Source: Burkholderiales bacterium (GTDB taxonomy: Bacteria; Pseudomonadota; Gammaproteobacteria; Burkholderiales; JBILQJ01). From it: a stretch of DNA of 64,000 nucleotides. Where the stretch lies: NCBI GenBank assembly GCA_044373325.1, contig JBILQJ010000004.1, forward strand, positions 10,115 through 74,114, written 5' to 3'. Positions 3,740 through 47,258 of the stretch are shown here, piece after piece. Numbering within the stretch: position 1 is the stretch's first letter; the number at the start of each line of letters is the position of its first letter. The notes below the pieces were generated by a model. The model made no database searches, was not told the origin of the DNA, and saw only the letters and a program-made list of their open reading frames with translations. The translations under genes were made by a program, and so were the position numbers.

Positions 3740-4603
3740 TCAATCACGAACGCGTAAAAAAGTGGCGAAACGCGGCAAGCCTTTTTTGGTGGTGTCGCGA
3801 TAACGGTAAGTGATTAGCGTGTTCAGCGGCGGTGGGGTTTTGCGCAGGGCATCGGTCAAGCCCGAGCCGACTTTAAAGGTTCTCCCATCGGGCAAAGCTA
3901 AAATCAACGCACCGACTTGGCCTTCATATTTGCCTTTGCCTGCCGTGTAGCCCACCACTTTGGCTTCGGCATCTTGTATTTTTTTGAGTTTTAACAAAGC
4001 CGCGCTGCGACCTGTGTGCCACAAACTGTCGGCGCGGTGCAACATTAATCCTTCACCGCCGCCTGCCACAATTTCGTCTAAAGTGGCCATGAGTTGAGCT
4101 TCGGTGCTGACTTTAAATTGTGGAACGGCTTTTAAATAGGGACTGTTGGCGCTTTGTACCAACCGCGTGATGGCGGCAAAGCGCGCGCTAAAATCGCTTT
4201 GTGCTTTGGGTAATTCGTACAGTTGATAGGTGATTTTTTGCCATTCTGCGTCTATGGGTGGACTGCGCCGTATGGCCGCACTGACCGCGTCAAATTGGCC
4301 ACGAGCCATCCACAATTCCCCGTCCAAAGGGACTTTGGGAAACTTGGCCGTAAACCAAGCGGGCGCTTTGATAACAAGGCCGCCGCGCGTGGTTAACGTT
4401 TGCCCGTTCCACACCGCACGCACGCCATCTAGTTTTTCGCTGACCAAATAGGCGCTGGGATTGATGCCTTGTTTGTAGGAGTCGGCCAATAAAATGTCGG
4501 GCGTATTGGGGCTGGGTGCCGCCAAACTGGGTTGATAAGCAAACAAAGGCCAACACAAAGCCGTTGCCAAAAGGGTGAGACGTGGTGTGAGCTGATTTTT
4601 CAT
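3740..4603 (-). CDS. secreted (periplasmic) ATP-dependent DNA ligase, LigE-like
   Basis: 287 aa with an N-terminal signal peptide (MKNQLTPRLTLLATALCWPLFAYQPSLAAP) and adenylation motif I KLDGVR (SEKLDGVRAVWNG). It is a minimal ligase with no extra domains. Confidence 0.75.
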   Translation of the reverse strand: MKNQLTPRLTLLATALCWPLFAYQPSLAAPSPNTPDILLADSYKQGINPSAYLVSEKLDGVRAVWNGQTLTTRGGLVIKAPAWFTAKFPKVPLDGELWMARGQFDAVSAAIRRSPPIDAEWQKITYQLYELPKAQSDFSARFAAITRLVQSANSPYLKAVPQFKVSTEAQLMATLDEIVAGGGEGLMLHRADSLWHTGRSAALLKLKKIQDAEAKVVGYTAGKGKYEGQVGALILALPDGRTFKVGSGLTDALRKTPPPLNTLITYRYRDTTKKGLPRFATFLRVRD

Positions 4604-29884: not shown

Positions 29885-31657
29885 ATGCTTAACACAACAC
29901 TCAATACCGATATTGCGGCGCTTCCAACTCAGCCGCGCATCATCTGCCGTTCGTTTTCTGCCGAAAATACATCGAGTTTGATTGCCGCAGGCGCGCATCC
30001 TGTTTTGGCCAAATTGTATGCGGCGCGAGGCTTGACCCAAGCCAGTGATTTGGATTTGTCTTTAAACGCTTTGTTGCCGTTTCAGTTGCTGAAAGGCATT
30101 TCTGCTGCGGTGGCGCGATTGCAGCAAGCCATTGCTTTGCAAGAATTGATTTTGATTGTGGCCGACTATGATGCCGATGGCGCAACCGCCTGTGCGGTGG
30201 CCATGAAAGGCTTAAAAGCTTTGGGCGCTCGCGTGCATTTTGTGGTGCCGAATCGTTTTGAGTACGGTTATGGTTTAAGCCCAGAAATTGTGGATTTGGC
30301 CGCTCAATTTCAGCCTCAGTTAATTGTGACCGTGGATAACGGTATTGCCAGCGTCGCGGGTGTGGCCAGAGCGCAAGCCTTGGGCATAGATGTCTTGGTA
30401 ACCGATCATCATTTGCCAGGCGATGTCGTGCCCGATTGTATTATTGTGAATCCGAATCAAAAAGGGTGTGATTTTCCGTCCAAAAATTTGGCGGGCGTGG
30501 GCGTGATGTTTTATGTCTTGATGGCGTTGAGACACGCCCAAAGAGAAGCAGGTCTGTATGACGCGCAACCCCAGCCCAATTTGGCGGTGTTGTTGGATTT
30601 GGTGGCTTTAGGGACGGTGGCCGATTTGGTGAAATTGGACAAAAACAATCGCATTTTGGTTGAACAAGGATTGCGCCGCATTCGCGCAGGTAAAATTTGC
30701 GCAGGCATGGCGGCTTTGTTTGAGGTCGCTAAAAAATCGCCCCAAAAAGCACGCAGTGTCGATTTTGGGTTTTCTTTAGGGCCGCGACTCAATGCGGCTG
30801 GGCGTTTAGACGACATGAGTTTGGGGATTGCCTGTTTGTTGAGTGACAGCCCGCAACAAGCCTTGGATTTGGCGCATGAACTCGATGAGTTGAACCGCGA
30901 ACGTCGCCAAATTGAAAGCGTCATGAAAGAAGAAGCCTTGCAAAGCCTAGAAACGCTTGCGGCCAACCTTGAGGCCGCCAAGTTGACCAACAACGTCGAA
31001 CAAACGGCTTACAGCATCAGTTTATTTCATCCCGATTGGCATCAAGGCGTGGTGGGTATCGTGGCCAGTCGTGTCAAAGAATTGCACCATCGCCCGTGTT
31101 TGATTTTTGCACCTGTTGCGGACAGTCAAGAAATTCGAGGCTCGGGGCGCTCGATAGAAGGCTTTCATTTGCGAGATGCCTTAGATTTGTTGAGTAAACG
31201 CCACCCAGCCTTAATTTTAAAATTTGGGGGGCACGCCATGGCCGCCGGGTTGAGTTTACGCGCCCAAGATTTTGAGTTTTTTCAGCGTGAATTTGAAGCC
31301 GTCGCGGCCAGTTTGTTAACCGTTGACAGTTTGACGCGTTCGATGCACATAGACGGGAGTTTGTCTGCTCAACATTTGAATTTGAAAACTGCCACTTTGC
31401 TGAACGAGACGGTTTGGGGGCAAGGATTTTTGCCACCTTTGTTTCAAGATGCGTTTGAAGTGGTTAATCAAAAAAGAGTGGGGACCAATCACCTTAAAGC
31501 CACCTTAAGAAAAGAAGGCGTTGAATTTGGGGCCATGTGTTTCAATCGCACCGATTTTTTTCCGCTAAGCATCAAAGCGGTGTATCAAATGGTGGCCAAT
31601 GAATGGCGAGGTGGCGTCGAATTGCAATTGTATTTGGAACAAGTCGAAGCCACTTAA
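29885..31657 (+). CDS. recJ: single-stranded-DNA-specific exonuclease RecJ
   Basis: DHH-family motifs VADYDADGATA, VTVDNG, LVTDHH and GGHAMAAG. Confidence 0.9.
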   Translation: MLNTTLNTDIAALPTQPRIICRSFSAENTSSLIAAGAHPVLAKLYAARGLTQASDLDLSLNALLPFQLLKGISAAVARLQQAIALQELILIVADYDADGATACAVAMKGLKALGARVHFVVPNRFEYGYGLSPEIVDLAAQFQPQLIVTVDNGIASVAGVARAQALGIDVLVTDHHLPGDVVPDCIIVNPNQKGCDFPSKNLAGVGVMFYVLMALRHAQREAGLYDAQPQPNLAVLLDLVALGTVADLVKLDKNNRILVEQGLRRIRAGKICAGMAALFEVAKKSPQKARSVDFGFSLGPRLNAAGRLDDMSLGIACLLSDSPQQALDLAHELDELNRERRQIESVMKEEALQSLETLAANLEAAKLTNNVEQTAYSISLFHPDWHQGVVGIVASRVKELHHRPCLIFAPVADSQEIRGSGRSIEGFHLRDALDLLSKRHPALILKFGGHAMAAGLSLRAQDFEFFQREFEAVAASLLTVDSLTRSMHIDGSLSAQHLNLKTATLLNETVWGQGFLPPLFQDAFEVVNQKRVGTNHLKATLRKEGVEFGAMCFNRTDFFPLSIKAVYQMVANEWRGGVELQLYLEQVEAT

Positions 31658-31725
31658 ATCCGATACGCCACATGAAGTTCTGGCAAAATTCATGCGCCAG
31701 TTTTTGGCTTGCGGCCAACCTTGAA

Positions 31726-32454
31726 TCAAGAGGAACACAGTTCTTTTTGTTCGGTCCAATGCTCGGCGCGTTGATTGGCGATGGCCAAGTTTTCTGGGGT
31801 AAGCACTTGGCTGGTTGCGCCCCAAGCGATGAGTTCGTTGGCCAATAAAACGGTTTGGCTGAAACCTGTGCGGACTTGATTAAAATCGTGCAAAACCGCC
31901 AGCACCGTTTTGCCTTGTGCTGGCCAAGTTTGCACCAAAGCCAACAAATCTTCGGTGGTTTTGCTGTCTATGGCGTTAAAAGGTTCGTCTAAAATAATGA
32001 CTTGTGCATTTTGCACCAAAATTCGGGCAAACAGCACGCGCTGAAATTGGCCACGCGACAGCGCCGCAATGGATTTGCCGCTAAAATCCACCAAGCCCAC
32101 TTGATCTAAAGCGTGCATAATGCGTTCGCGCTGGGCAGCGTTAAGACTTTGAAAAACGCCAATTTCGTGCCACAAACCCATGGCCACCAAATCAAACACA
32201 GACAAAGGCAAACTGCGGTCAATTTCGGCTTGTTGCGGTAAATAAGCAATATCCGCGTGAGTGATTTTGCCCAAATTCACTTGCCCAGATTGTATGGGCA
32301 GCAAGCCTAAAATGGCCTTGAGTAGACTGGACTTGCCCGCGCCATTGGGGCCAACAATGGCCGTGGCCAATTGGGGTTGAAAGGTGCCGCTGATGTGATG
32401 GACAGCAGGGTAACGATCATAAGAAACCGTCAAATTCTGTAGCGTGATAGTCAT
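31726..32454 (-). CDS. metal (Zn/Mn)-type ABC transporter ATP-binding protein, ZnuC-like; no permease or binding-protein gene adjacent
   Basis: Walker A GPNGAGKSS, signature LSRGQFQRV, Walker B IILDEP. Confidence 0.7.
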   Translation of the reverse strand: MTITLQNLTVSYDRYPAVHHISGTFQPQLATAIVGPNGAGKSSLLKAILGLLPIQSGQVNLGKITHADIAYLPQQAEIDRSLPLSVFDLVAMGLWHEIGVFQSLNAAQRERIMHALDQVGLVDFSGKSIAALSRGQFQRVLFARILVQNAQVIILDEPFNAIDSKTTEDLLALVQTWPAQGKTVLAVLHDFNQVRTGFSQTVLLANELIAWGATSQVLTPENLAIANQRAEHWTEQKELCSS

Positions 32455-38561: not shown

Positions 38562-40022
38562 ATGCGTGTTATACAAAAAGCCTACACTTTTGACGATGTT
38601 TTGTTAGTCCCTGCGCACTCTAACGTGCTGCCGAGAGACGTGTTGTTAACCACACGCTTAACTCGTCGAATTGGGTTAAATTTGCCCTTATTGTCTGCCG
38701 CAATGGATACGGTGACCGAGGCGCGCTTGGCCATTTCTATGGCGCAAGAAGGCGGCATCGGCATCATACACAAAAATTTATCTCCTTCTGAACAAGCCAG
38801 AAAAGTCATGAAAGTCAAACGCCACGAAAGCGGCATCGTTAAAGATCCCATCACCATTTCGCCCGATTTGTTGGTGGGTGATGTCATTCAATTGACGCAA
38901 TTGCATAAAATTTCGGGTTTGCCTGTGGTTGAAAATGGCCGCGTGGTGGGCATCGTCACCAATCGCGATTTGCGTTTTGAAACGCGCCACAGCCAAACCG
39001 TGCGCAGCATCATGACGCCGCGCGCAGATTTAATTGTGGTGCAAGAAGGCGACAGCATCGAATTGGCGCGCGCCTTGATGCACGAGCATCGCATCGAACG
39101 CGTGTTGGTGTTGGGTGACAACGACAAATTAAAAGGCTTGATTACCGTCAAAGACATTTTAAAAACCAGCGCGCACCCCTTTGCCAACAAAGATGATCAA
39201 GGCCGCTTGCGCGTGGGCGCGGCGGTTGGTACGGGTGCAGATACCGAAGAACGCGTTGAAAAACTGGTGGCCGCAGGCGTTGATGTCATTATTGTTGACA
39301 CCGCGCACGGCCACAGCCAAGGCGTCCTTGACCGCGTGCGCTGGATTAAAAACACCTATCCAGCCGTTGATGTTATCGGTGGCAACATCGCCACAGCAGC
39401 GGCGGCTTTGGCTTTGGTTGAAGCAGGTGCTGATGGCGTAAAAGTTGGCATCGGCCCAGGTTCTATTTGTACCACGCGCATCGTGGCGGGTGTGGGCGTG
39501 CCACAACTGACGGCCATACATAACGTGTCGGAAGCCTTAAAAGGCACGGGCGTACCGATGATAGCTGATGGCGGCATCCGTTTTTCGGGCGACATTGCCA
39601 AAGCCTTGGCCGCAGGCGCAGATTGTGTGATGTTGGGCGGTATGTTTGCAGGCACAGAAGAAGCCCCTGGTGAAATTGAATTGTACCAAGGCCGTTCTTA
39701 CAAATCGTATCGCGGCATGGGTTCGTTGGGCGCGATGAGCCAAGGCTCTAGCGATCGTTATTTTCAAGATGCCGCCGCAGGCGCAGACAAATTTGTGCCC
39801 GAAGGCATAGAAGGCCGCGTGCCGTACAAAGGCCCCATCGCCGCCGTCATCCATCAATTAATTGGCGGATTGCGTTCGTCTATGGGCTATTTGGGGTGCG
39901 CGTCTATTGCCGACATGCACGACAAAGCTGAATTTGTAGAAATCACCTCGGCAGGCATGCAAGAATCTCACGTGCATGATGTGCAAATCACCAAAGAAGC
40001 GCCCAATTATCAAATGCGTTAA
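38562..40022 (+). CDS. guaB: IMP dehydrogenase
   Basis: The ATG at 38562 follows the AGGAGG RBS. Has a CBS pair and the catalytic loop [12 protein letters not shown]. Confidence 0.95.
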
Positions 40023-40050
40023 ATTTGAGCCTTGATGCGCCTGTTTTGCC

Positions 40051-40100
40051 TTGCGGCCAACCTTTTTCTCGTGATTTTCACGTTAAAAGGTTGGCCGCAA
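40051..40100. repeat. inverted pair of the 12-mer, ACGTGAA-loop subfamily (inverted orientation)
   Basis: ttgcggccaacc-tttttctcgtgattttcacgttaaaa-ggttggccgcaa. Confidence 0.9.
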
Positions 40101-40126
40101 GATTTTGGCAATTTGCAAAGATGAGA

Positions 40127-40180
40127 GAAAATAAATAAATAAATGAATAAATGAATAAATGAATAAATGAATAAATAAAA
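40127..40180. repeat. AT-rich octamer tandem repeat (AATAAATG)x4-5 with degenerate flanks
   Basis: aaaataaataaataaatgaataaatgaataaatgaataaatgaataaataaaa. Confidence 0.8.
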
Positions 40181-40287
40181 ACCGCCGAGTCTCTAAGACG
40201 AAGGGCGGTTTTTTATTTTTTGTATCTTTTCACTAACGTGAATCAACTTGTTATCGAGAGACACACATTTTCTAATTTGCTAATAAG
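40176..40287 (-). ncRNA. predicted tracrRNA (ends approximate)
   Basis: Plus-strand 40264-40279 (cacattttctaatttg) is identical to 16 nt of the CRISPR repeat, so the minus-strand RNA carries the anti-repeat. Partial complementarity continues to the repeat 5' end (GTT, CGA). Downstream on the minus strand are the hairpin TTCAC-GTTA-GTGAA (40229-40242) and an intrinsic terminator ACCGCC...GGCGGT + TTTTT (40176-40209). A sigma70-like promoter lies upstream. Confidence 0.7.
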
Positions 40288-40292
40288 TTTGT

Positions 40293-40321
40293 ATTCTAAA
40301 TTTTATTTTATTGGCCGTCAA
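40293..40321 (-). promoter_or_regulatory. predicted tracrRNA promoter: TTGACG - 17 nt - TAGAAT
   Basis: The minus strand reads TTGACGgccaataaaataaaattTAGAATacaaact. The -35 is the complement of 40316-40321 and the -10 the complement of 40293-40298. Confidence 0.6.
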
Positions 40322-40405
40322 CTTATTTATTTTGGCTTGGGTTAAAATAGCGGCTGATTTAAATTTTTCTGCTGGTTTAAAATACCCCTAAAAAGAGGAG
40401 ATGAC

Positions 40406-43400
40406 ATGAAAAAATTGAAAAAGCCGATGATTTACCGTTTGGGTTTGGATTTGGGGGCGACTTCCATCGGTTGGGCGATAGTGCGCCTCAATCAACCAAA
40501 AGTGGCCGAAACGGCGCAGGCGCATGAAGCTGTAGCGCAGGGCAAATTGAAACCGAGTTCTATCGTAACGATGGGCGTGCGCTTGTTTCCTGATGGCCGC
40601 ACTGATAAAGACAAAACGTCTTTGGCGGTGGCGCGTCGTTTGGCTCGGGGCGCCAGACGGCGGCGCGATCGGGTAATTGCGCGTAAAAACAGGTTGCTGG
40701 ACGCTTTAATGGTGGCGGGTTTTATGCCCAGCATTGCCGAGACGGAGGCGCGGCGCGAGTTGGTGGACATGAATCCGTATGAGATTCGGGCGCGTGCTTT
40801 GAATGAAGCGGTACATCCGCATGAAATTGGCCGTGCGATTTTTCACATGGCGGTGCGCCGTGGGTTTAAGAGCAATCGCAAGTCGGACAAATCCAACACC
40901 GACACGGGCAATTTAAAGCAAGCCATTTTTAAAACTCGGCAGGCTATTGCTGATTTGGGGATGCGTACTTTGGGCGAATGGTTGGCCGCAAAATATGAGT
41001 TACATGCCAAGGGCGAATTTTTGCGCAATCGCGACATAAAAGCCGACAATGCCAAACCCAACGCCAAAAAAGAATATCGTTTGTATATCGACCGCCAAAT
41101 GATAGAAGATGAGTTTGATTTAATTTGGGCAACACAAGCAGGCTTTGCGCCTGCGGTTTATACGGCGGAATTGGGTCACAAACTGAAAGATGTGTTGTTG
41201 TTTCAGCGGCCATTAAAGTCGAAAAAAGGCGAGGTTGGGCGCTGTACCTTAGAACCAGAAGAACCGCGCGCGGCTTTGGCTTTGCCTTCGGTGCAACAAT
41301 TTCGCATTTACCAAGAGCTGAATCATTTGCGCATTAAAGGTTCGGCACGGATTAACGAGGCAGATCGGGCGTTGACTTTGGCCGAGCGTGATGCTTTGGC
41401 GGCCATGCTAGAAAAAACCGACAAGTTGAGCCTGACGGCTTTGAAAAAGGCCTTGGGTTTGTCTTCGGCGGCAGAATTGTCTATAGAGTCGAGCCGCAAA
41501 GAGTTGCGCGGCAATGCGACCAGCATTAAATTGGCGTCGCCTGCGTGTTTTGGCGCGGCTTGGCATGGCTTGGATTTGGCGGTGCAAGATGCTTTGGTGA
41601 ACGCGATGATAGAAGCGCAAGACGATGCGGCCTTATTGGCCGAATTGCGCGAAGGTTGGCCGCAGCTTATGCAAGGGTTAAGCGCCGAACAAGAACAAGC
41701 CGTTGTGGATGCGGTGTTGCCTGACGGGTATGGCAAATTGTCGAGCAAAGCCTTGGCGACGGTTTTGCCAGCCTTAAAATCAGACGTGATGACTTACGAC
41801 AAAGCGGTGTTGGCGGGCGGTTACGACCATCACAGCCAAGTCGGCGGCGTGTACGAAACGGGCGAGGTCAATATGCCTGAATTGCCGTATTACGGCCAAC
41901 CTTTGCGCCGTCACGTGTCGTTTGGTACGGGCAAAGTGGGCGATGCGGACGAAATTCGCTATGGCAAAATTGGCAATCCCACCGTGCATATCGGCTTGAA
42001 TCAATTGCGTAAAGTGGTGAATGCCATCATTAAAAAATACGGCAATCCGACCGAAATTGTGGTGGAAGTGGCGCGGGATTTGAAGTTGAGCCAAAAGAAA
42101 ATAGACGAACTCAACAAAGAAAACCGCGAAAACGAAAAGAAAAACGAGGCCTATCGTCAAGAAATTGTGGGCGCTGGCTTAACGCCCAGCTCGCATTATT
42201 TGCAAAAAGTGCGGTTGTGGCACGCGTTAAGCGCTACGCCAGCCAACCGCAAATGCGTGTTTACAGGCCGTGCGATGGCTTTGCACGACGTGTTGAGCAA
42301 TGCCACGGAAATTGAGCATTTGTTGCCGTATTCTAGAACGTTGGACGACACGCGCGCCAACAAGACCATTTGTTTTGTGGAGGCCAATCGCATTAAGGGC
42401 GACCGTTCGCCGTGGGAAGCCTTTGGCGAGCGCAAGGTGGCGGGTTATGACTGGGCGGACATTTTGGCGCGTGCGGCCAACTTTGCAAACAAACGCACGC
42501 GCGACCGTTTTGCCGAAGACGCGATGGCCAAGTTTAATGACGAAAACGAATTTTTGGCGCGCGCCTTAAACGACACGGCGTATTTGTCGAAAATGGCCAA
42601 AGAGTATTTGATGTGCGTGGTGCCTAAGCCTGAAAATGTGCGCGTGATCCCTGGGCAAATGACCGAAAAAATCCGCCGTGCCTTGGGCTTGAATCAAGTG
42701 TTGGTGGATTTGGGCGATGAAGCGCGGAAGTTGGCCGCAGCCCAAGGCGCGACTTTAGAAGAGGGCGAAGACGGCGAGGGCGCCAACCTTGCGGCCAACC
42801 TTGAATCGGATACAAACGCCGAACCAGCAGACGACAAGGCCGAAGCAGCCCCCGAAACCGAAGCAGAAAAAGCGCGCAAAGGCGAAGTGGCTGCCGAAAA
42901 AAATCGCAACGATCACCGTCATCACGCCATTGATGCTTTGGTGGTGGCCTTGACCGATCAAGGTTTGTTGGCCAGCTTTCAGCGCGAAAGTAAATACCAA
43001 CAGCATTACGCTCAAAAATCGGTGGTGGCGCGCAAAATGCGGCCGCCGTTTCCCGAGGTGGACAAACACGGCGTGATGTTAAACGATGCCGAATGCCGCC
43101 AAGCCTTCCGCGCGCGCGTCAAAGAAAAAGTCGCCCAAATCACGGTCAGCCACAAACGCGATCATGGGTATCAAGGGCAAATGATGGAAGAAACCTCTTG
43201 GTCGCCCAAAGACAAGCGCGGCAACGTGGCCATTGCGTTTAGCCCCAAAAAAGGCAATCGCTTTAAAACCCACGACAGGCAACGGCTGGACGAGAGCGGC
43301 CAACCTTTGGCGTTTAAAAAATACGTGGGCGGCAGCAATTACGCCATAGAAATCACCGCCACGCTGGACAAAAAAGGCCAACCCAAATGGGAAGGCACGG

Positions 43401-43828
43401 TTTTAAGCACGTATGACGCGTACAAAATCGTGCAAAAAGGCCGCGCCGCTGGCCTCAGCTTGGCCGAAGCCGAAAAAGGCTTGCGTCACCCCACCCTAGC
43501 GCAAAATGGCCAGCCCTTGGTCATGCGCCTTATGATTAACGATGTGGTGGCCATGAACACGGCCAGTGGGCGGTGTTTGTATCGGGTGGTGAAAATGGCA
43601 TCAACAGGAACGATTAGTTTTACGCCTTTGCATGAGGCCAATGTGAATGCTCGTGACATTGCCCGTAACAATTACAACAAAGACCTCAAAGCAGGCAAAG
43701 ACGTGAGTGGCCTAGACCCCAGTTTGCATATTGCCTATGTTTTTAAAACGGCCAGTTCTTTGCAAAAAGCAGGGGCGCGTGTGGTAAGTGTGTCGCCCAT
43801 AGGGGACGTGCAGTATTTGAAGGGATAA
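40406..43828 (+). CDS. cas9: Cas9, type II-C
   Basis: 1140 aa. RuvC-I YRLGLDLGATSIGWA (Asp codon 40448-40450); Arg-rich bridge helix ARRLARGARRRRDRVIARKNRL; RuvC-II EIVVEVARD; HNH EIEHLLPYSRTLDDTRANKTICFVEANRIKGDRSP (His codon 42317-42319); RuvC-III NDHRHHAIDALV. RBS AGAGGAG lies 5 nt upstream. No csn2 or cas4 is in the locus. Confidence 0.95.
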   Translation: MKKLKKPMIYRLGLDLGATSIGWAIVRLNQPKVAETAQAHEAVAQGKLKPSSIVTMGVRLFPDGRTDKDKTSLAVARRLARGARRRRDRVIARKNRLLDALMVAGFMPSIAETEARRELVDMNPYEIRARALNEAVHPHEIGRAIFHMAVRRGFKSNRKSDKSNTDTGNLKQAIFKTRQAIADLGMRTLGEWLAAKYELHAKGEFLRNRDIKADNAKPNAKKEYRLYIDRQMIEDEFDLIWATQAGFAPAVYTAELGHKLKDVLLFQRPLKSKKGEVGRCTLEPEEPRAALALPSVQQFRIYQELNHLRIKGSARINEADRALTLAERDALAAMLEKTDKLSLTALKKALGLSSAAELSIESSRKELRGNATSIKLASPACFGAAWHGLDLAVQDALVNAMIEAQDDAALLAELREGWPQLMQGLSAEQEQAVVDAVLPDGYGKLSSKALATVLPALKSDVMTYDKAVLAGGYDHHSQVGGVYETGEVNMPELPYYGQPLRRHVSFGTGKVGDADEIRYGKIGNPTVHIGLNQLRKVVNAIIKKYGNPTEIVVEVARDLKLSQKKIDELNKENRENEKKNEAYRQEIVGAGLTPSSHYLQKVRLWHALSATPANRKCVFTGRAMALHDVLSNATEIEHLLPYSRTLDDTRANKTICFVEANRIKGDRSPWEAFGERKVAGYDWADILARAANFANKRTRDRFAEDAMAKFNDENEFLARALNDTAYLSKMAKEYLMCVVPKPENVRVIPGQMTEKIRRALGLNQVLVDLGDEARKLAAAQGATLEEGEDGEGANLAANLESDTNAEPADDKAEAAPETEAEKARKGEVAAEKNRNDHRHHAIDALVVALTDQGLLASFQRESKYQQHYAQKSVVARKMRPPFPEVDKHGVMLNDAECRQAFRARVKEKVAQITVSHKRDHGYQGQMMEETSWSPKDKRGNVAIAFSPKKGNRFKTHDRQRLDESGQPLAFKKYVGGSNYAIEITATLDKKGQPKWEGTVLSTYDAYKIVQKGRAAGLSLAEAEKGLRHPTLAQNGQPLVMRLMINDVVAMNTASGRCLYRVVKMASTGTISFTPLHEANVNARDIARNNYNKDLKAGKDVSGLDPSLHIAYVFKTASSLQKAGARVVSVSPIGDVQYLKG

Positions 43829-43878
43829 ACGCGCCACCGCGAGGGGTTTTCCCTAGTTAACCCTGCCGCGCAGCGGCA

Positions 43879-43922
43879 AGCGCCGTCTCGCTACCCCTTG
43901 GGGTGGCGAGACGGCGCTTTTT
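43879..43922 (+). terminator. strong rho-independent terminator of cas9, abutting CRISPR repeat 1
   Basis: agcgccgtctcgctacccc-tt-ggggtggcgagacggcgct followed by tttt, then the first repeat starts at 43923. Confidence 0.85.
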
Positions 43923-44557
43923 GTTCCGATTGGCTCACATTTTCTAATTTGTTATAATTAGAGTTCTACCATAAGTATCACGTTGTTAGTTCCGATTGGC
44001 TCACATTTTCTAATTTGTTATAATTAAACGACGACAGGGAAGCTTGGACTCGTATGTTCCGATTGGCTCACATTTTCTAATTTGTTATAATCATGATTTT
44101 TAATCCCTTTTTTGAGTGTTTGTTCCGATTGGCTCACATTTTCTAATTTGTTATAATTAAGTGTTTTTCCCAAATGTCTACCATGGTGGTTCCGATTGGC
44201 TCACATTTTCTAATTTGTTATAATCAAGGGCGTTTGCCCTTGTCAATACTTATTGTTCCGATTGGCTCACATTTTCTAATTTGTTATAATCACAAAGAAT
44301 GAAGGGTTATTGTATACATAGTTCCGATTGGCTCACATTTTCTAATTTGTTATAATTACAACCTATTAAGGCTTGTTATCTAAAACCGTTCCGATTGGCT
44401 CACATTTTCTAATTTGTTATAATTTAATGGCCAATAGTCTAAACATTGCGTACAGTTCCGATTGGCTCACATTTTCTAATTTGTTATAATTTTAATCAAA
44501 GGAGGCTTAAATGTCTGATATGTTCCGATTGGCTCACATTTTCTAATTTGTTATAAT
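43923..44557 (+). CRISPR. CRISPR array: 10 identical 36-bp repeats and 9 spacers of 30-31 bp
   Basis: Repeat is GTTCCGATTGGCTCACATTTTCTAATTTGTTATAAT, starting at 43923, 43989, 44056, 44122, 44189, 44255, 44321, 44388, 44455 and 44522. All spacers are unique. Orientation is inferred from the tracrRNA anti-repeat and the TGTTATAAT box at each repeat end. Confidence 0.97.
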
Positions 44558-44562
44558 TAGAT

Positions 44563-44604
44563 AACCCTGAAATCCTTGTTTAACAATGGTTACAGGGTTT
44601 TTCT
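44563..44604 (+). terminator. possible terminator after the last repeat
   Basis: aaccctg ... cagggtt followed by tttttc. The loop is long (about 23 nt), so the call is weak. Confidence 0.35.
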
Positions 44605-44621
44605 TTGCCAAAAAACCAGTT

Positions 44622-44660
44622 AAAAACGGCCCAATTTTCTTAAAATTTGGCCGTTTTTTT
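44622..44660. terminator. bidirectional hairpin terminator between the array and cas2
   Basis: aaaaacggcccaattttcttaaaatttggccgttttttt: stem ACGGCC(C)AATTTT/AAAATTTGGCCGT flanked by an A-run and a T-run. Confidence 0.6.
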
Positions 44661-44836
44661 GCGCCAACTTGGCCTTTTTAACAGGCAAAATCGTCCCTGC
44701 AACCCAAAAAATTCGCATTTTTGGGCTGTGGCTGGTGGGTAAAACAGAAGAAAATTGGCCAAAATTGAGGGCGTTTGGGGCGGATATAGGCCAATTTGGC
44801 TTGTTTTACCTTTTTTTACTGTCGTGGCGCGGTGGC

Positions 44837-45232
44837 TTAAAACAGCATGAGCTGATCGGGCTTGGCGAGGCGTTGACGCTGGCCACCGCGAAACGAACGG
44901 ATTTGGCCGTATTGTTTGTCGGTAAAGCACAGCACATCGACTTTGCCGCCCTCGGGCAAGGCCAGCTGAATTTTGTTGAGCAGACTCAAATAATGCGCTT
45001 TGCTGCCGCAGACGCGCATATAAACCGACAACTGCGCCATTTCAAAGCCCTGATCGAGCAAAGACAAGCGAAAAGCCTGCGCGTTTTTGCGTTCGGTTTT
45101 GGTCAGCGTGGGCAAATCAAACATCACCAATAGCCACATGATTCGGTACCCCGATAATAAAGTGTTGAGCGGATTGGACGGTGCCATATCGGCTGCGGCC
45201 AACCTTTTGATGGGTTTTAGGCGTTTACTCAT
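44837..45232 (-). CDS. cas2: Cas2 (type II)
   Basis: 131 aa with LSGYRIMWLLVMFDLPTLTKTERK... (beta1 with the conserved Asp). AGGAG RBS, and the start is 20 nt after the cas1 stop. The N-terminus is about 15 aa longer than usual (alternative start 45187). Confidence 0.9.
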   Translation of the reverse strand: MSKRLKPIKRLAAADMAPSNPLNTLLSGYRIMWLLVMFDLPTLTKTERKNAQAFRLSLLDQGFEMAQLSVYMRVCGSKAHYLSLLNKIQLALPEGGKVDVLCFTDKQYGQIRSFRGGQRQRLAKPDQLMLF

Positions 45233-45252
45233 AACAGCGGCGCTCCTGTCGG

Positions 45253-46353
45253 TTACAACTCAAAATCGTCGTCTGACGGCTCGTCATCAAACGGCGTGCT
45301 GTCGGCCAAAGGGGGCGCATTGAACGCGCGATTGGCCGCGTAACCATTGGCGCGGTAAACGTTGGCCGCAAGGGGCAACAGCAGCTCGGTTTTTTCTTTG
45401 AGATAAACCTGCGCCAAACTGGAAGCCAAGCGCTGCATGGCCAAGGCCGCAGGACTTTTGCCATAAGGCATGACCACCGCGTGATCCAACACGTTGGCCA
45501 ACACGCGTTTGGCCGCTGGCGTTAAACAGGCTTGGGCTTGGGCGTGAGTCGTAAAATCTTGCCCCGAAGCGCGCGCCGTGTCGAGCAAAGACAGCGCCCG
45601 AAAATCCACCAAAGGCCGAAAGACTTCCATTAAATCGTCCACCAAGCGCATGGGATTGAGTTCGTGCCGATGAAATAAGCCCAAAGCAGGGTGCAAGCCC
45701 GCCGAACACACCGCCCGCGCCATGGCGCTGCGCAGTACCGTGTAGCCGTAATTTAAAAAAAGGTTGGCCGCAACATAAGGCGGATGCGCGTTGTATCCTT
45801 GGCGTTTAAAGCGGCCATCAGCCTTGCCGTCTTCCTCGCCCTGCACATCGCCCACGGAGGGAAACAACAGCCCCCAATACAAACGCGCCGCCGTGGCTTC
45901 CACATTGGTGACATCGCCCGATTGCACGCGCCCGACCAAAGCCAACACAGGCCGCACATCGCGACCCAAAGCGTCCAGTAAAGCCGCTTGCTGGCTGATT
46001 TTGGCTTTGACCAAGGCCGCCCACAGGCGCTTTTTTTGGGGTTGCGTCACCAATAACTGCGCCTCAAATCGCGCAGCCATGCTTTGATGTCCCGCCAAAG
46101 GCAACAGCTGGCTGATGGGCTGATGATGCCGATCGCACACCGTAAAAATGATGCCGTGTTCGGCAAACGCCACCAAGATGGTGTTGCTGTAAGTGATGCC
46201 GTAAGCGTGGGCAATCACGGCACTGATGTCGCTTAATGCCACGCGCCCCAATTCGTGCGTCACGCCTGCTTGCGTGCGCGTCAGCACCAAAAATCCTCGG
46301 TAACTTCTTAGATGAACGTGGTTTTCGCTGATGTCTATGATGCGATGCCTCAT
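45253..46353 (-). CDS. cas1: Cas1 (type II)
   Basis: 366 aa with NLFLNYGYTVLRSAMARAV and GLHPALGLFHRHELNPMRLVDDLMEVFRPLVD. It carries an extra Gly/Asp-rich insert and an acidic C-terminal tail (DDEPSDDDFEL). Confidence 0.9.
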   Translation of the reverse strand: MRHRIIDISENHVHLRSYRGFLVLTRTQAGVTHELGRVALSDISAVIAHAYGITYSNTILVAFAEHGIIFTVCDRHHQPISQLLPLAGHQSMAARFEAQLLVTQPQKKRLWAALVKAKISQQAALLDALGRDVRPVLALVGRVQSGDVTNVEATAARLYWGLLFPSVGDVQGEEDGKADGRFKRQGYNAHPPYVAANLFLNYGYTVLRSAMARAVCSAGLHPALGLFHRHELNPMRLVDDLMEVFRPLVDFRALSLLDTARASGQDFTTHAQAQACLTPAAKRVLANVLDHAVVMPYGKSPAALAMQRLASSLAQVYLKEKTELLLPLAANVYRANGYAANRAFNAPPLADSTPFDDEPSDDDFEL

Positions 46354-46392
46354 GCTTTTCTCCCGTGGTTAAGTGAGCCTACAAAAAAAAAC

Positions 46393-46440
46393 GTGCGGCC
46401 AACTTTTTATCATGAATTTTTGATAAAAAGTTGGCCGCAA
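46393..46440. repeat. inverted pair of a 12-mer variant (GTGCGGCCAACT ... AGTTGGCCGCAA) about 40 nt upstream of the cas1 start
   Basis: gtgcggccaact-ttttatcatgaatttttgataaaa-agttggccgcaa. Confidence 0.85.
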
Positions 46441-46818
46441 ACTTTGAAATTTAATGACTTAATCCATCACAAAAAGCGCCTTTGAACTCTGTAGACCAAA
46501 TCCCCTTTAGCGAGTCCGACTAACGTGGACGACGCGATAAACTCAATTTTGAATCTATCATTCAAAGCTTGGCGTGTTTGCTTTGGGTCGATTGATTGTT
46601 TGAGCGTCCGTCGGTCTCGCCCGACAGGCGACCTATTTTTTTGCGTCGCCAAAAAAACAGGACAAAAAGGCGAGCCCGCGCACGGGCGTGCAAAAATTCC
46701 GCGCCTGTTTTTAGAACACCCTTTAAAGGCACGTTCAGCGCTATTTTTTAGCACTGACTCAACCAAACACCTGCCAATAGTCATGGTGACTATGAAAAAC
46801 CTATTTGATTAAAAATCC

Positions 46819-46877
46819 TTGCGGCCAACCTTTTTCCAGTTTTCGTGTTGAAAATCAAGAAAAAAGGTTGGCCACAA
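46819..46877. repeat. inverted pair of the 12-mer, GTTTTCGTGTTGAAAA-loop subfamily
   Basis: ttgcggccaacc-tttttccagttttcgtgttgaaaatcaagaaaaaa-ggttggccacaa. Confidence 0.9.
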
Positions 46878-46943
46878 ACTTGGTCGCAAAAACAAGGCTA
46901 AAAATAACTGGAATAAATTAGAAGTTGCTAATATAATGACACC

Positions 46944-47258
46944 ATGAAAACGACAAACCCTACCCCATTAGACGTGATGCAGCGCAACGCCGACCAAGCC
47001 GAAGCCATGCTCAAATTACTGGCTAATGCCAAACGCTTGATGATTTTGTGCCATTTGGTACAAGGTGAAAAATCGGTCGGAGAACTGGCGGATTTGGTTG
47101 GTTTGTCGGCCTCTGCCTTGTCTCAACATTTATCAAAAATGCGCAGTCAAGGCTTGGTTGAAACCGAAAAACGCGGTCAAATGGTGTATTACAGCATACA
47201 AAATCCTGAAGTTCAGGCCATTTTGTCTACCCTGTATTTGATTTATTGCAAAACATAA
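46944..47258 (+). CDS. ArsR/SmtB-family transcriptional regulator (BigR-like)
   Basis: Winged HTH ELADLVGLSASALSQHLSKMRSQGLV; 104 aa. Confidence 0.8.
   Translation: MKTTNPTPLDVMQRNADQAEAMLKLLANAKRLMILCHLVQGEKSVGELADLVGLSASALSQHLSKMRSQGLVETEKRGQMVYYSIQNPEVQAILSTLYLIYCKT

Follow-up and report, generated by a model that had tools for sequence, protein, structure and literature searches.

Type II-C Cas9 proteins share a common plan, which is found in the betaproteobacterial representatives of Alicycliphilus denitrificans, Parvibium lacunae and Vandammella animalimorsus as well as in Nme1Cas9, GeoCas9/ThermoCas9 and HpaCas9. They agree in domain order and catalytic motifs, carry the same sequences (VIPGQMT...GLN and KNRNDHRHHA(V/I)DA) on both flanks of one site in the RuvC-III part of the protein, and are encoded in clustered regularly interspaced short palindromic repeats (CRISPR) loci that consist of cas9, cas1, cas2 and an array of 36-nt repeats. 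The cas9 gene described here has all of these properties, with 42–49% identity of its product to the betaproteobacterial proteins. It lies in a 64,000-nucleotide stretch of contig JBILQJ010000004.1 (positions 10,115 to 74,114, forward strand; GenBank assembly GCA_044373325.1) of a Burkholderiales bacterium, and this whole stretch is referred to as the window. However, where the known proteins have 0 to 8 residues between the two flanks, the window Cas9 has approximately 68, and none of the known proteins contains an acidic low-complexity segment. We consider it fairly likely that this additional segment, the insert, is a lineage-specific expansion of a RuvC-III surface loop, translated, disordered and strongly acidic, in a type II-C Cas9 that is functional, and that a 12-mer which is abundant in the window and also present in the insert is a passenger there and not its seed.

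The size of the insert was determined against several references. In an alignment with 60 homologues (alignment A2), residues 767–830 fall into columns that are gaps in at least 90% of the homologues. The spacing from VIPGQMT to N-DHRHH is 82 residues in the window Cas9 and always 22 in the approximately 105 nearest full-length homologues (46–49% identity, 1013–1053 amino acids), so the net insertion amounts to 60 amino acids. When the insert is taken out, the alignment to St1Cas9 and GeoCas9 continues over the junction uninterrupted; these two are another 9 residues shorter at this site, and the excess relative to them is approximately 69 amino acids. The original prediction, which had been made from the DNA of the window, gave a length of approximately 70 residues; this value holds in comparison with St1Cas9 and GeoCas9, but it is too high in comparison with the closest relatives (60). 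The acidic, Ala/Glu-rich peptide quoted there is present at residues ~763–831, before RuvC-III, and the short loop that had been stated for the classical Cas9 proteins was right in substance, as seen from the alignment with St1Cas9 and GeoCas9. At its C-terminal side, the insert ends one residue ahead of the invariant K832/R834 and eight residues ahead of the catalytic H839/H840.

The composition of the insert is strongly biased. Counted over 59 residues, it contains 17 Ala, 12 Glu, 5 Gly and 4 Asp, no aromatic and only five large aliphatic residues, and it carries a net charge of −10, while the remaining Cas9 carries +42. In a charge–hydropathy plot, it is located on the disordered side (mean hydropathy 0.40, net charge per residue 0.17). 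The AlphaFold model of the protein reached a mean predicted local distance difference test score (pLDDT) of 71.6, with values of approximately 29–40, and hence below 50, for residues 780–834, a region in which just five alignment rows cover the insert; a helix formed by residues 763–779 extends into the start of the insert. Judging by composition and model, the insert is probably intrinsically disordered. At the DNA level, the G+C content at third codon positions (GC3) is 0.57 for the insert and 0.59 for the gene, and this gene-like value indicates native and not recently imported DNA. No Pfam family was matched by the insert on either strand, and an antisense open reading frame (ORF) at 42755–43069, likewise without a Pfam family, was treated as spurious. 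Searches with tblastn and blastn within the window returned no other copy of the insert, the 12-mer being the sole match, and the predicted RNA fold of the insert region, which includes 10-bp and 13-bp inverted repeats, was not unusually stable (z = −0.99).

The insert is restricted to a single lineage. It is carried by only two clusters at 90% identity, both at least 94% identical to the window Cas9, and one member of these is labelled 'Neisseriaceae bacterium' by NCBI. The next relatives, with at most 49% identity over the full length or at most 58% as fragments, all lack it. One fixed spacing from VIPGQMT to the RuvC-III motif DHRHHAxDA is kept by approximately 200 of the nearest relatives (46–58% identity). 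A survey with regular expressions counted 203 proteins of base length, and the 15 proteins with 60 to 64 extra residues were all from the own cluster. When 1.84 billion cluster representatives were searched exhaustively with HMMER, an unbroken match through the insert was obtained in the own cluster only, and nearly all other alignments broke at query residue 133–141, which corresponds to the insert start. A 400-aa query returned only fragments of at most 58% identity and no intermediate relatives with the insert, and the Cas9 genes found in a genome scan (24–53% identity) were all without it. A shorter query of 131 aa, composed of the insert and its flanks, gave 84 candidates and 2 matches, but it missed the own cluster and is therefore uninformative.

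This distribution also bears on whether the insert could stem from misassembly, belong to a pseudogene, or be an intein or a small mobile element. Its low complexity would fit such an explanation, and so would a premature stop codon further downstream in the cas9 gene of strain contig L012. However, 15 protein sequences contain the insert, and they derive from different samples with assemblies at NCBI, JGI, ENA and Logan; its presence in independent assemblies argues against an assembly artefact. Moreover, it is always in frame and has a native-like GC3. With regard to a mobile element, there were no target-site duplications, no terminal repeats of the element type, no Pfam or Rfam match and no paralogous copy in the window, although splicing motifs of inteins were not part of the search. 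Taken together, an artefactual or untranslated insert is extremely improbable.

Within the own cluster, the segment varies in length. Measured from VIPGQMT to N-DHRHH, alleles of 82, 83, 85 and 86 residues were found, and every insertion or deletion is in frame. The contigs L006, L009 and L012 contain an extra 12-bp unit, AACGAAGAGGGC, within the GARGANGGC repeat (Table 1). The other differences are a 3-bp insertion or deletion of GAC at the DNA level and, at the protein level only, an extra Glu in P0122. Pairwise ratios of non-synonymous to synonymous polymorphism (pN/pS) were 0.24–0.77 in the insert, with small counts of 4–10 non-synonymous and 2–6 synonymous changes, compared with 0.11–0.18 in the rest of the gene and 0–0.13 in the 100 residues on each side. 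Despite the substitutions, insertions and deletions, a net charge of −10 to −12 is kept in all five alleles. It can be concluded that the insert is translated and retained, and that purifying selection on it is clearly weaker than in the rest of Cas9, but not absent.

The site at which the insert is found changes in length in other Cas9 proteins as well. In five relatives of greater distance, the loop is longer by 6 to 19 residues at exactly this site. Among 142 representatives of the wider type II-C diversity, the site was measurable in 120, of which 57 show the base length and 63 exceed it; approximately 40 of the latter have 5 to 22 extra residues, and one (P0270) has approximately 40. By the same measure, the loop lengths in this wider set are 26 to 47, with one at 65. 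In the solved structure of CbCas9 (PDB 8iyq), approximately 40 residues in total are found at the site. The expansions of the other lineages are polar and non-conserved, with charges of −3 to +3, and among those measured, the window insert surpasses all others in length and, by a wide margin, in acidity. Since many lineages other than the insert cluster also have an expanded loop here, the comparison supports the view that the site is permissive and a recurrent place of length change. The original prediction had supposed a permissive surface loop, and the longer representatives, the raised pN/pS, the in-frame length differences between strains and the pLDDT below 50 all agree with this. Rather than a novel type of structural element, the insert represents the extreme form of a surface loop that is known to vary.

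The 12-mer in the insert, TTGCGGCCAACC (reverse complement GGTTGGCCGCAA; extended consensus TTGCGGCCAACCTTTT), is part of a much larger set. The window contains 41 exact copies, compared with 0.07 expected, of which 20 are on the plus and 21 on the minus strand. According to a rough gene call, 28 copies are intergenic, and these mostly form inverted pairs approximately 36 bp apart, downstream of genes and with T runs (e.g., 3667/3703, 6435/6472, 8471/8507, 13744/13779 and 16434/16471, and further 37652/37689, 40051/40089, 48794/48831 and 57977/58012). From their location, the pairs appear to sit in terminator-like positions. The remaining 13 copies are in called ORFs, although two or three of these are probably due to miscalled gene starts. 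Copies within genes are located at 165, 18523, 27114, 27294, 30957, 40980, 42789, 45762, 51529 and 60100, and the genes hit encode or represent an HhH-GPD repair glycosylase, tilS, a glycosyltransferase (twice), recJ, cas9 (twice), cas1, an M20 peptidase and a uvrD/rep helicase. Most of these copies are read as (L/V/I)-A-A-N, or as L-A-A when antisense. As had been stated in the original prediction, the recJ copy at 30957 encodes LAANLE in the same frame, and Pfam confirmed the gene product as a DHH/DHHA1/RecJ_OB protein. The 12-mer was absent from four unrelated loci (L001–L004).

Short and strongly over-represented motifs are known as DNA uptake sequences. These sit preferentially at poorly conserved amino-acid positions, where they accumulate secondarily (Findlay and Redfield 2009, PMC2817400), and in N. 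meningitidis approximately one-third of them are located in ORFs, with a frame bias, and accumulate after gene acquisition (PMC2817400). Inverted pairs in terminators and a bias to genome-maintenance genes have also been described (Helsem et al. 2025, bioRxiv 10.1101/2025.10.24.684340), and a CTG core is described as essential in Neisseria (bioRxiv 10.1101/2025.10.24.684340). TTGCGGCCAACC was not found among the published uptake-sequence dialects in the literature searched. Neither TTGCGGCCAACC nor GGTTGGCCGCAA has CTG at the aligned position, and only GCGGCC is common with the Vitreoscilla massiliensis dialect AGCGGCCTGTAA. The 12-mer may represent an undescribed uptake-sequence dialect without a CTG core, or a different terminator-associated repeat.

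The copy in the insert had been reported correctly as an exact match, and it straddles the junction of two 12-bp tandem units (Table 1). The sequence GCCAACCTTG occurs twice, 12 bp apart (42782–42791 and 42794–42803), in agreement with the partial tandem duplication described earlier, and the upstream variant that had been noted is a copy with two mismatches in opposite orientation, which forms a perfect 10-bp inverted repeat with 42790–42799. In 20,000 codon shuffles of the insert, the exact 12-mer was obtained in 0.025% and two copies with at most two mismatches in 0.085%, so the Ala-rich composition does not explain these copies; one or more copies with at most two mismatches were reached in 4.9%, from composition alone. 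The presence of an in-gene copy within 180 nt is mildly unexpected, with approximately 0.03 copies expected from the in-gene density and approximately 0.12 from the overall density. The resulting density is approximately 30 times that within genes, yet only one case was observed, and it was assessed post hoc.

Copies of the 12-mer in cas9 turn over between strains. The copy in the insert is intact in the window and in the contigs L005 to L008, while L009 and L012 have TTGTGGCCAACC at this position (TTGTGG for TTGCGG). TTGTGGCCAACC is among the most frequent one-mismatch variants of the 12-mer in the window and is compatible with decay at CpG, but no outgroup has the insert, and the direction of the change between TTGCGG and TTGTGG can therefore not be established. 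Conversely, an exact copy at position 2296 of L012 corresponds, by its position in the gene, to a copy with one mismatch in the window.

From the features of the insert copy, it was proposed in the original prediction that uptake-sequence-like DNA had seeded the insert, which would then have grown by duplication or insertion of DNA containing the 12-mer. The exact copy with its 10-bp partial tandem duplicate and the 12-mer at the junction, the inverted copy with 10 of 12 matches located 48 nt upstream, and the rarity of this combination in the codon shuffles are in favour of such an origin, as are the 20 bases around the insert 12-mer that are identical to an intergenic copy at 31708–31727. 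However, at most approximately 33 of the 180 nt (~18%) are related to the 12-mer, and the rest consists of GAA/GCN-rich codons without a match elsewhere in the window. The exact copy is polymorphic between strains. Its arrangement (inverted copy, 48 nt, forward copy) also differs from the usual one in the window, in which the forward copy precedes the inverted copy at a distance of approximately 36 bp from start to start. Many lineages outside the cluster expand the same loop, a comparison made on proteins whose DNA was not examined for the 12-mer, and uptake sequences are known to accumulate afterwards at poorly conserved positions (PMC2817400). The proposed growth from uptake-sequence-like DNA was therefore not upheld, and seeding by the 12-mer is an unlikely origin of the insert.

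The expansion of a variable loop, with the 12-mer as a passenger, is the explanation that we favour instead. The loop between the helix after the VIPGQMT strand and the basic/catalytic motif KNRNDHRHHAIDA, which is variable in length in many lineages, would have grown to 60 extra residues in this species-level lineage. Small in-frame insertions and deletions would continue in short GAR/GGC-type repeats, most simply by replication slippage. The 12-mer would be one of the many copies that the genome accumulates, gained and lost between strains and not the generator of the insert, and it would be found in the loop because the loop tolerates L-A-A-N-L, the commonest in-gene reading of the genome. 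This tolerance fits the published secondary accumulation at poorly conserved positions (PMC2817400). At most, four residues (ANLA) were probably gained when a 12-mer copy underwent one 12-bp slippage.

Several results weigh against this explanation. The low pLDDT of residues 780–834, which was obtained when structure prediction was carried out as suggested, partly reflects the few covering alignment rows and is weak independent evidence of disorder. The internal repeats of the insert (9, 12, 18 and 21 nt) do not exceed the codon-shuffle expectation; 706 of 1000 shuffles reached the observed value in a best-match repeat test and 293 of 1000 in a summed test. Growth of the whole segment by slippage is consequently not demonstrated, and slippage is supported for the strain differences only. 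Internal tandem duplication was also considered as the origin of the insert and rejected, since the repeats are visible but within the codon-shuffle expectation. Furthermore, the identity range from 58% to 94% yielded no relatives, so that neither the age nor a stepwise origin of the insert can be traced. The other expansions at the site are near neutral, and permissiveness alone leaves the strong acidity unexplained. Finally, pN/pS does not reach 1, the charge is −10 to −12 in every allele and all strains have the insert, and some function is therefore possible.

One such function would be that of an acidic gate or DNA mimic, in which the tethered segment with a charge of −10 transiently fills the basic groove that guides the non-target strand into RuvC. 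This may result in less non-specific or premature cutting by RuvC, in a tuned strand order or product release, or in a decoy or docking site for a partner or inhibitor. The insert directly precedes the invariant K832/R834, which would be the groove residues according to our own alignment by eye, and the catalytic H839/H840. Its charge is maintained in all five alleles in a protein that is otherwise strongly basic, its acidity is an outlier among the expansions at the site, and the pN/pS below 1, the exclusively in-frame length changes and the lack of an insert-free allele among those seen are consistent with a function. On the other hand, constraint is clearly relaxed compared to the flanks, the alleles are too closely related for the conserved charge to mean much, and the insert is limited to one species-level cluster. 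A lead from CbCas9 also failed: its extra residues had been considered as an analogy for a partner-binding loop, but the partner PcrIIC1 binds a C-terminal helix instead. We regard the acidic gate as unlikely, and it would be compatible with the favoured origin by loop expansion.

Acidic disordered segments that mimic DNA or cause self-inhibition are known from the acidic tails of SSB and HMGB1 and from DNA-mimic anti-CRISPR proteins. By analogy only, the insert resembles these as an acidic low-complexity segment that is tethered to a basic nucleic-acid-binding surface. In the most specific form of this idea, the insert would be a built-in tethered DNA mimic which competes with the non-target strand at the K832/R834 groove as a self-inhibition or fidelity gate, or which serves as a decoy or docking site against anti-CRISPR proteins; we give this only a slim chance. 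If an acidic gate were true, it would be the natural counterpart of engineered, charge-neutralised Cas9 variants of high specificity.

The surrounding locus (Table 1) looks complete, and Cas9 looks intact and functional, as judged from the 10 identical repeats, cas1, cas2 and the conserved catalytic residues. The cas9 gene is one uninterrupted ORF of 1140 codons. Pfam identified RuvC_III (2.7e-23), HNH_4 (4.7e-17) and Cas9_a, the alpha-helical lobe, and the top sequence matches among solved structures are of type II-C (GeoCas9/ThermoCas9, Nme1Cas9 and HpaCas9). A comparison of the AlphaFold2 model by Foldseek gave Nme1Cas9, ThermoCas9, HpaCas9 and GeoCas9 as best matches with E-values of 1e-34 to 1e-40, while the template modelling (TM) scores were low (~0.4), which is expected when a protein of several lobes is modelled with neither RNA nor DNA. 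In alignment A2 (65 sequences), E554, the HNH residues H638 and N661 and the RuvC-III residues H839/H840 and D843 are invariant, and D15 is nearly so. Around the insert junction, K832, R834, D836, H837, R838, H839, H840, A841, D843 and A844 are invariant across the 65 sequences.

Table 1. Features of the cas9 region and of the insert; positions are those of the window.
Feature	Positions	Strand	Basis or remark
Candidate tracrRNA (trans-activating CRISPR RNA) anti-repeat (tentative)	40255..40286	−	Repeat-like, upstream of cas9; local alignment to the CRISPR repeat of 32 nt, score 38; no Rfam match
cas9, 1140 aa, type II-C, catalytic motifs intact	40406..43828	+	Pfam, sequence matches to solved structures, Foldseek, alignment A2
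Second exact 12-mer in cas9, antisense, read W-L-A-A-K	40980..40991	−	Kept in all strain contigs
Lineage-specific loop expansion, residues 767–830, span 64 residues, net gain 60: VDLGDEARKLAAAQGATLEE(GEDG)EGANLAANLESDTNAEPADDKAEAAPETEAEKARKGEVAA	42704..42895	+	Alignment gaps, spacing
Degenerate 12-mer, 2 mismatches (CTGCGGCCAACT on minus strand), read K-L-A-A-A	42729..42740	−	
9-bp repeat GARGANGGC (EEG/EDG/EG)	42758..42777	+	Tandem Repeats Finder, period 9, 2.2 copies; 12-bp in-frame length difference between strains
Two 12-bp tandem units GCCAACCTTGCG and GCCAACCTTGAA, encoding (G)ANLAANLE	42782..42805	+	In all strain alleles
Exact 12-mer TTGCGGCCAACC, read L795-A-A-N-L799	42789..42800	+	
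RuvC-III catalytic His/Asp motif with preceding basic residues, K832-N-R834-N-D-H-R-H839-H840-A-I-D843-A	42899..42937	+	Directly 3' of the insert
CRISPR array, 10 identical 36-nt repeats GTTCCGATTGGCTCACATTTTCTAATTTGTTATAAT, spacers of ~30 nt	43923..44557	+	
cas2	44837..45232	−	Pfam CRISPR_Cas2; also adjoins cas9 in strain loci
cas1, 366 aa, with C-terminal extension	45253..46353	−	Pfam Cas_Cas1 over residues 11–286

Further observations were made on the Cas9 gene and its neighbours. Compared with the 60 homologues, Cas9 has two other lineage-specific inserts: residues 33–46 (40502–40543; VAETAQAHEAVAQG), which lie within RuvC-I and are also rich in Ala, Glu and Gln, and residues 884–899 (43055–43102; EVDKHGVMLNDAECRQ), downstream of RuvC-III. 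In the strain contig L012 (ENA ERZ19026863), codon 983 of cas9 is changed from TAT to TAA at ~3994–3996, resulting in the premature stop mentioned above with an unchanged frame beyond it; either cas9 has recently lost its function in this strain, or the contig contains a sequencing error. An AT-rich 8-bp tandem repeat, (AATAAATG)n, is located at 40130–40177, upstream of cas9 and between a 12-mer inverted pair and the candidate anti-repeat.

The layout of the locus is unusual for type II-C. Unlike in the systems introduced at the outset, cas2 and cas1, both encoded on the minus strand, converge on the array, which follows cas9 on the plus strand. In the 1-kb interval between cas9 and cas2, no ORF of at least 50 codons was present except those overlapping cas2, with profiles of csn2 and cas4 not run on the wider neighbourhood, and Rfam gave no match over 39900–47000. 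All 10 CRISPR repeats have the 3' end TTGTTATAAT, which is similar to an extended −10 promoter element; promoters inside the repeats are a feature of Neisseria type II-C arrays, which these repeat ends bring to mind. The Cas1 protein is longer than the solved type II Cas1 chains (288–302 aa) and has an extension of ~70–80 residues (~45253–45490, minus strand) with an acidic tail at its end (...PFDDEPSDDDFEL). This tail is the second acidic addition to a Cas protein at this locus.

For Cas9 engineering, the insert points to a position next to the RuvC active site that naturally tolerates insertions and accepts at least 60 residues in a seemingly functional locus, and it provides a natural acidic variant for questions of non-target-strand cleavage and specificity. 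With regard to genome evolution, it is a clear case, dated by polymorphism, of an uptake-sequence-like motif that is located in a weakly constrained loop and turns over between strains. Neither point overturns the current understanding, and the 12-mer system itself is the more unusual feature of the window.

In comparison with known systems, the 12-mer resembles the uptake sequences of Neisseriaceae and Pasteurellaceae, as it is short, highly over-represented, present on both strands and located in genes in approximately one-third of the cases (13 of 41). It also has favoured frames, weakly conserved protein positions, genome-maintenance genes and inverted pairs after genes in common with them, but it lacks the CTG core of all described dialects. 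The insert itself can best be compared with the Cas9 lineages that have an expanded loop (P0270 with ~40 extra residues, P0350 and P0365 with ~21, and CbCas9). These are expanded at the identical point, immediately in front of (K)NR-DHRHH, and the added residues are likewise polar, of low complexity and non-conserved. However, these expansions are shorter and not Ala-rich, and they carry charges of −3 to +3, in contrast to the −10 to −12 of the window lineage.

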